From Escherichia coli (GTDB lineage Bacteria > Pseudomonadota > Gammaproteobacteria > Enterobacterales > Enterobacteriaceae): DNA of 64,000 bases. The position numbers were made by a program, and so were the translations under genes. Of the stretch, positions 24,284 through 24,311 are shown one piece after another (position 1 is the stretch's first letter; every line of letters begins with the position of its first letter). The notes below the pieces were generated by a model that worked only from the letters and a program-made list of their open reading frames with translations, made no database searches and was not told the origin of the DNA. The DNA lies in NCBI RefSeq assembly GCF_041886205.1, contig NZ_CP169031.1; one strand, written 5' to 3'.

Positions 24284-24311
24284 AAAAAAAAGGCGGCCTA
24301 ATGGCCGCCAA
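24284..24311 (-). terminator. rho-independent terminator immediately upstream of ref start
   Basis: On the minus strand: hairpin ggcggccattaggccgcc followed by T8, ending 5 nt before the ref ATG. Confidence 0.55.

Follow-up and report, generated by a model that had tools for sequence, protein, structure and literature searches.

The hairpin and U8 tract lying immediately 5' of ref in a P1-like plasmid prophage very likely constitute a Rho-independent terminator in the 5' leader of the P1-type ref gene, one that would act as a transcriptional attenuator. This assignment builds on the sequence signature of the element, its position with respect to annotated promoters and the conservation of its structure, each of which is directly established. 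The stretch of DNA analysed (64,000 nucleotides, hereafter the window) corresponds to a P1-like plasmid prophage; it most resembles phiW39, SJ46 and numerous E. coli plasmids, with identities reaching 99.5%. An attenuator at this locus is evidently already known, as the title of the 1988 paper by Windle, Laufer and Hays (J Bacteriol 170:4881) proposes a ref attenuator. According to the P1 record, sequence M23246 deposited with that paper covers P1 1808-2063, and coordinate arithmetic identifies P1 2063 as the last (3') base of the hairpin. Nothing found in the present analysis overturns the original proposal. The 1988 work by Windle et al. reportedly included deletion analysis. What is added here is comparative: two lineages appear to have preserved the RNA structure of the terminator.

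On the minus strand the region reads ...CATCATT GGCGGCC ATTA GGCCGCC TTTTTTTT GCCAT ATG AAA ACA..., i.e. a stem of seven G-C pairs capped by a tetraloop (GGCGGCC-AUUA-GGCCGCC, 24292..24309) and followed by an uninterrupted U8 tract (24284..24291) that begins at the base directly after the stem. Folded in isolation, the hairpin has an energy of -16.2 kcal/mol, occupies 93% of the ensemble and yields z = -3.2, with a fold as good obtained in 1 of 200 shuffles. It also ranks first among the terminator-like sites of a 10-kb consensus scan, all seven of its pairs being G-C. A strict terminator definition (perfectly paired stem with 6 or more pairs, 6 or more of them G-C; loop of 3-8; 7 or more T among 8) is matched by 6 sites in the 64-kb window, compared to a mean of 0.01 per dinucleotide-shuffled window and to any such site at all in 2 of 200 shuffles. 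Given these counts, the hairpin is not a chance feature. Four other terminator signatures of strict quality are located at 8519-8538, 11684-11701 and 41786-41808 on the plus strand and at 42415-42390 on the minus strand, those near 41.8-42.4 kb forming a convergent pair. The palindrome of the ref hairpin has no second copy in the 64-kb window. A preliminary description of this DNA had reported a strong GC hairpin plus T8 on the ref strand just 5' of the ref ATG, and both sequence and fold agree with it. The distance of 5 nt given there is exact, GCCAT separating the T8 from the ATG, while the range 24284-24311 comprises the T-run, the hairpin and two additional bases.

The ref gene (23718..24278, minus strand; 186 codons plus stop, from the ORF, tblastn and P1 annotation) encodes a RecA-dependent HNH nuclease; by tblastn, the window Ref shares 98.9% identity with that of phiW39 and 93.5% with that of P1. 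In the P1 record AF234172 the order along the ref strand is cre, a predicted c8 promoter, c8, P2ref with Oref, P1ref and ref. The stretch of AF234172 examined around ref lists these promoters and the operator, and no terminator. As the P1 reference order is cra-cre-c8-ref, the gene between cre and ref is c8 (24526..24837, also given as 24526-24873, minus strand; an ORF annotated in P1, P7 and phiW39), and transcripts reading through it would reach the hairpin. Hence, the earlier placement of the hairpin downstream of cre-cra is right with respect to cre, but the intervening gene is c8. The GenBank JL22 record names the c8 gene cra, and a 73-codon ORF upstream of cre (25927-26148, minus strand) is probably cra.

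Both ref promoters were transferred from P1. P2ref (24370..24398, minus strand; -35 CTACCA at 24398..24393, -10 TATAAT at 24375..24370) derives from AF234172 positions 1957-1985 through a gap-free alignment, with a predicted start near G24363, approximately 55 nt upstream of the stem. The C1 repressor operator Oref (ATTGCTCTAATTGATTG, 24377..24393, minus strand; P1 annotation 1962-1978) overlaps P2ref and is conserved in all relatives, including Cronobacter phage JK004 and the Salmonella plasmids described below. P1ref (24311..24338, minus strand; P1 annotation 2017-2044) has its -35 box TTGCCA at 24338..24333 and a TG-extended -10 box CATCAT at 24316..24311, and was recovered independently by a consensus promoter scan. 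Its -10 box stops one base short of the stem, with the ref ATG 33 nt past that box. In P1, a terminator is thus located between a ref promoter and the ref start codon, the promoters themselves being annotations or predictions. Because a C1-controlled ref promoter lies upstream of it, the hairpin sits within the ref leader, besides being downstream of cre and c8. The preliminary description took the hairpin for a terminator insulating ref from read-through; the terminator is well supported and insulation is plausible, but P2ref and Oref were missed, and with them the position of the hairpin in the leader of ref itself.

The ref leader, from the predicted P2ref start to the hairpin (24310..24363, minus strand), combines a predicted 5' hairpin with a C/U-rich segment, CUUCACUCCUUGAC. 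From the leader start through the hairpin and T8 to base 19 of ref, the window and P1 do not differ, and the gap-free alignment shows the region unchanged in P7 as well. Substitutions between the window and P1 upstream of the leader affect the P2ref -35 box, an H-NS motif and positions 24368-24367. H-NS binds the ref 5' region (PMC4713147), and the motif CGATAAA described for P1 in the same study reads CGAGAAA in the window (24407-24413, minus strand), with a T-to-G change at 24410.

Approximately 58 related loci were gathered from viral contigs, phages and plasmids; a 15-mer scan of the viral contigs gave mostly chance matches, and BLAST filtering was applied. Across these loci the P1-type stem GGCGGCC/GGCCGCC is invariant save for three singletons, each of which converts a G-C to a G-U pair. 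The P1-type loop varies freely (ATTA, ATCA, GAAA, GCAA, TAAA), and the T-run is polymorphic in length (T6-T10) among the relatives. A second lineage is made up of phage JK004, with a Ref that is 64% identical, and several Salmonella plasmids. These contain a C1-type operator (ATTGCTCTAATAATTAT), a TATAAT box, a leader of ~45 nt, a 7-bp hairpin with a tetraloop, T7-8 and the ref start, with a different stem sequence (GACGGTC/GACCGTC). They have neither cre nor c8 upstream, yet the operator-leader-terminator-ref layout is kept; P1ref is not recognisable in this lineage. In a 13-sequence alignment all cells form standard pairs, with slid controls dropping to 14-71% pairing. Two of the stem pairs are compensatory (G-C to A-U and C-G to U-A), although these reflect one lineage split and hence few independent events, and three pairs show one-sided G-U changes. 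The compensatory pairs, together with the free variation of the loop, point to selection acting on the RNA structure of the hairpin. Of five segments compared, the leader is the least conserved, 39-56 of 60 positions matching in divergent relatives; the P1 types, JK004 and the Salmonella plasmids nevertheless share a CUCC-UGAC motif immediately before the hairpin. The notion that a terminator precedes all ref homologues was rejected, as the D6-type, Klebsiella, Citrobacter, Leclercia, Vibrio and Alteromonas homologues have no start-adjacent hairpin.

In the proposed mechanism, C1-repressed transcripts would start at P2ref, ~55 nt before the stem, and read-through transcripts from cre and c8 would arrive from farther upstream, with both kinds meeting the terminator 13 nt before the ref AUG. 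From the signature and its position we infer that transcription most probably ends there, producing an RNA of ~80 nt, and that a toxic RecA-dependent nuclease would thereby be kept low. Expression of ref could then follow several routes. Polymerases may read through the terminator once C1 is lost; pairing between upstream and terminator segments of the leader (GUUGCCA with UGGCGGC) possibly delays hairpin formation; and the weak P1ref may start inside the hairpin. For this last route, the usual 7-nt spacing predicts a P1ref start at ~24306..24302, within the 5' arm or loop of the hairpin, and RNA starting at that point could not form the terminator stem.

Published data bear on the first of these routes. 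Following thermal inactivation of C1, ref RNA was found to rise 73-fold (a value not normalised to phage copy number) with a peak at 30 min, slightly later than that of other C1-controlled genes (Ronayne et al. 2016, PMC4713147). This induction on loss of C1 implies that transcription from upstream of the hairpin gets to ref, and thus that the stop is either leaky or overridden. The preliminary description had named read-through at full level into ref as the observation that would speak against a terminator, and the induction supplies a partial answer, with the stop retained as a leaky or overridden one. Ref lowers lysogenisation 40-fold and sharpens killing by ciprofloxacin (PMC4713147). Ref harms the host, so that the tightness of the prophage's hold on ref is physiologically relevant. 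Part of that control can be ascribed to the terminator interposed between ref and its C1-controlled promoter.

A candidate antiterminator was identified by folding the nascent leader from the predicted P2ref start to the loop. In these folds GUUGCCA (24333..24339, minus strand) pairs with UGGCGGC (24310..24304) of the terminator 5' arm, the corresponding segments in JK004 and the Salmonella plasmids being ACUGUCA and UGACGGU. The pairing probability of the 5' arm is 0.85-0.98 compared to 0.61-0.65 in shuffled leaders, the P1 type giving 0.85 versus 0.61 (p ~0.02); this baseline reflects the ability of the G+C-rich arms to pair with many sequences. Sequestration of the 5' arm beats 97-99% of shuffled leaders (p ~0.01-0.03) in all three ref-carrying lineages, with p = 0.14 in a ref-less one. 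In the full-length P1 fold the terminator reaches -23.4 kcal/mol versus -14.9 kcal/mol for the alternative, and overall the terminator is favoured over the antiterminator by about 4-8.5 kcal/mol. Inspection by eye of the P1-type variants revealed no clean compensatory changes for either the antiterminator or the 5' leader hairpin, the registers of which shift. Regulated antitermination of ref is therefore possible but unproven on these folds, and a constitutive leaky damper is the simpler reading.

Sensing inputs of known types were also considered. No ORF in the P1-type leader begins with ATG or GTG; JK004 (9 codons) and Salmonella plasmid L138 (4 codons) do have short ORFs that end at the hairpin foot, which are absent in the related loci L137 and L139. 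Leader-peptide attenuation was rejected on both counts, i.e. the lack of such an ORF in the P1-type leader and the lack of conservation of those in JK004 and L138. A search of Rfam returned no riboswitch or leader family above threshold.

The ref start region was considered in view of the earlier suggestion that the hairpin could occlude translation initiation. The ref ATG is located at 24278..24276 on the minus strand, and the 5-nt spacer GCCAT (24279..24283) between U-tract and AUG contains no Shine-Dalgarno sequence. Among relatives the spacer also occurs as GACCAT and ACCTT, the difference between GCCAT and GACCAT being a single base among otherwise near-identical P1-like elements. In the Salmonella relatives GGAGATAAACA precedes a GTG start, with a GGAG Shine-Dalgarno sequence 7 nt before the GTG, past the U-tract and outside the stem (L138 700-725). 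The D6-type ref has an ordinary AAGAGG Shine-Dalgarno sequence (L129 1340-1365). With just U8 and GCCAT ahead of its AUG, the P1-type sequence suggests a deliberately weak or unusual translation initiation for ref. A distance of 13 nt separates the end of the stem from the AUG, around which the centroid fold leaves the RNA unpaired. With the Salmonella GGAG likewise outside the stem, occlusion of ref initiation by the hairpin is not supported.

Two further reading frames were noted around the leader. The ref frame has no stop in the 35 codons that precede the ATG, and extends back across the T-run and hairpin as far as a TTG within the operator (24279-24383, minus strand). An N-terminally extended Ref was rejected, as the frame is closed in JK004 and contains neither a Shine-Dalgarno sequence nor an ATG, and the openness is probably fortuitous. 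On the plus strand (24319-24349) a perfect AAGGAG Shine-Dalgarno sequence is located 7 nt ahead of the ATG of a 5-codon ORF (MATSS*) antisense to the ref leader. This AAGGAG is the complement of the CUCCUU motif in the leader, and the ORF, not conserved in JK004, is probably a by-product.

In 11 of the ~58 loci, P1 homology ends directly past the hairpin and a T6 run, and ref is not adjacent. These loci comprise an E. albertii plasmid (L004 1700-1790), an ETEC plasmid (L006 1700-1790) and 9 viral-contig loci. Beyond the junction lies the 3' end of a convergent operon encoding a KilAC-domain antirepressor (ant) and icd, its stop codon touching the A/T run. Operator, TATAAT, leader and hairpin are intact in all of these loci; since the terminator is kept where ref is not adjacent, it forms part of the module upstream. 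In such P1-like plasmids the palindrome marks the edge of a module. A search of the window for an ant homologue, carried out along with that for a palindrome copy as a recombination source for the ref-less junction, found none. Transcription from the C1-controlled promoter would there be limited to an RNA of ~77-80 nt, and the existence of a promoter-leader-terminator unit with no adjacent ref is a concrete reason to map RNA ends there.

The evidence was also weighed against readings in which the hairpin has another role. Were the promoter-leader-terminator unit a free-standing C1-controlled gene for a small RNA of ~80 nt with an Hfq-type 3' end, read-through into ref would be secondary. The loci that keep the unit with no adjacent ref favour such a gene, as does the succession of a 5' hairpin, a C/U-rich single strand, a terminator hairpin and U8, which resembles enterobacterial small RNAs; the CUCC-UGAC motif shared with JK004 and the Salmonella plasmids fits it too. 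We consider it unlikely, however, as the leader is the most variable segment next to an invariant stem, with no conserved seed apparent, and the ref-less arrangement could be a recombination junction at the palindrome. Searches of the literature turned up neither expression nor Hfq data for such an RNA, nor RNA 3' ends mapped in P1, and Rfam gave no match above threshold. Membership of the Rfam families suhB (22.9 bits versus a threshold of 41) and SorX (22.6 versus 46.6) was rejected, the scores reflecting terminator shape. It is decidedly improbable that the hairpin is purely an insulator ending the cre/c8 unit with no part in the control of ref itself. It is true that no other minus-strand T-tailed terminator is found from cre to the hairpin, that a hairpin directly behind c8 is followed by T8 on the plus strand alone, and that in ref-less plasmids the ref hairpin still closes a unit facing the convergent ant gene. 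Against this stand the C1-controlled ref promoter annotated between c8 and the hairpin, the inducibility of ref on loss of C1, and the JK004 and Salmonella loci, where the layout persists with no cre or c8 to insulate from.

A mainly translational hairpin, occluding or tuning access of the ribosome to the ref start, is very unlikely. The 3' arm of the stem, at -20 to -14 from the AUG, would lie at the edge of the 30S footprint, and the P1-type ref combines the lack of a Shine-Dalgarno sequence with a U-rich tract before the AUG. However, the AUG and the 13 nt preceding it are outside the stem and unpaired in the centroid, the Salmonella GGAG is clear of it, and the variable lengths of T-run and spacer among relatives argue against a need for precise spacing. 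We give almost no credence to a DNA-level palindrome (a recombination hot spot or protein-binding site) or a chance inverted repeat. The ref-less junction does fall directly after the palindrome, but the strand-specific T8, the fixed stem with its free loop, one-sided changes confined to G-U and the compensatory pairs are all signatures at the RNA level, and the palindrome occurs as a single copy in a window where 0.01 strict sites are expected. The attenuating terminator in the ref leader hence remains the preferred reading.

Diverging from P2ref, a small-RNA-like unit is present on the plus strand (24425-24528). It consists of an extended -10 promoter (24425-24453; TTTTCA, 17 nt, TGcTATACT; start predicted near 24461) and a strong terminator on the plus strand only (AGCCTGGC-TCCTT-GCCAGGCT plus T8, 24500-24528). 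The predicted RNA of ~68 nt would lie antisense to sequence immediately past the c8 stop codon. The element is nearly invariant, 62-68 of 68 positions matching in all relatives, and the P1 record carries no annotation of it; its Rfam score against SorX (22.6 bits) is below threshold. Pairing of this RNA with the ref initiation region was rejected, as the duplex energy (-19.7 kcal/mol) does not surpass that of shuffled sequences (p = 0.24). The c8-ref intergenic region might then encode two divergent small RNAs, the ~80 nt P2ref RNA ended by the hairpin and the ~68 nt plus-strand RNA, a proposal we regard as unlikely. If true, prophage induction would liberate the ~80 nt RNA in large amounts, and some plasmids would have retained it with no adjacent ref. 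Furthermore, the hairpin would primarily be the 3' end of a regulatory RNA, and expression of ref a by-product of read-through.

The attenuating terminator can be compared with several known systems. Canonical enterobacterial and phage Rho-independent terminators have in common with it the G+C-rich 7-pair stem, the tetraloop and a U8 directly 3' on the transcribed strand. The ref hairpin differs in preceding a gene, at 13 nt from the start codon, instead of following one, and in having no upstream A-tract, which makes it a one-directional terminator. Small RNAs derived from 5' UTRs by premature termination likewise combine a promoter of their own, a product of ~80 nt, a terminator with a long U tail and, in this case, occurrence with no adjacent ref. 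In contrast to these, the ref leader has no conserved seed and is the most variable part of the region, and the RNA here is predicted from sequence. The trp and his leaders, pyrBI, the bgl/sac-type systems and riboswitch platforms share a terminator placed between promoter and start codon and an upstream segment able to pair with its 5' arm. The ref leader is distinguished from these attenuators by having no conserved leader peptide, ligand fold or RAT-like protein site, and its alternative pairing is weak and without covariation, so that in place of a switch it may be a constitutive damper. The closest counterpart is the P1 ref attenuator of Windle et al. 1988, which is at the same locus as the hairpin described here, the window element being that of a P1 relative nearer to phiW39 and SJ46 with a few substitutions upstream.
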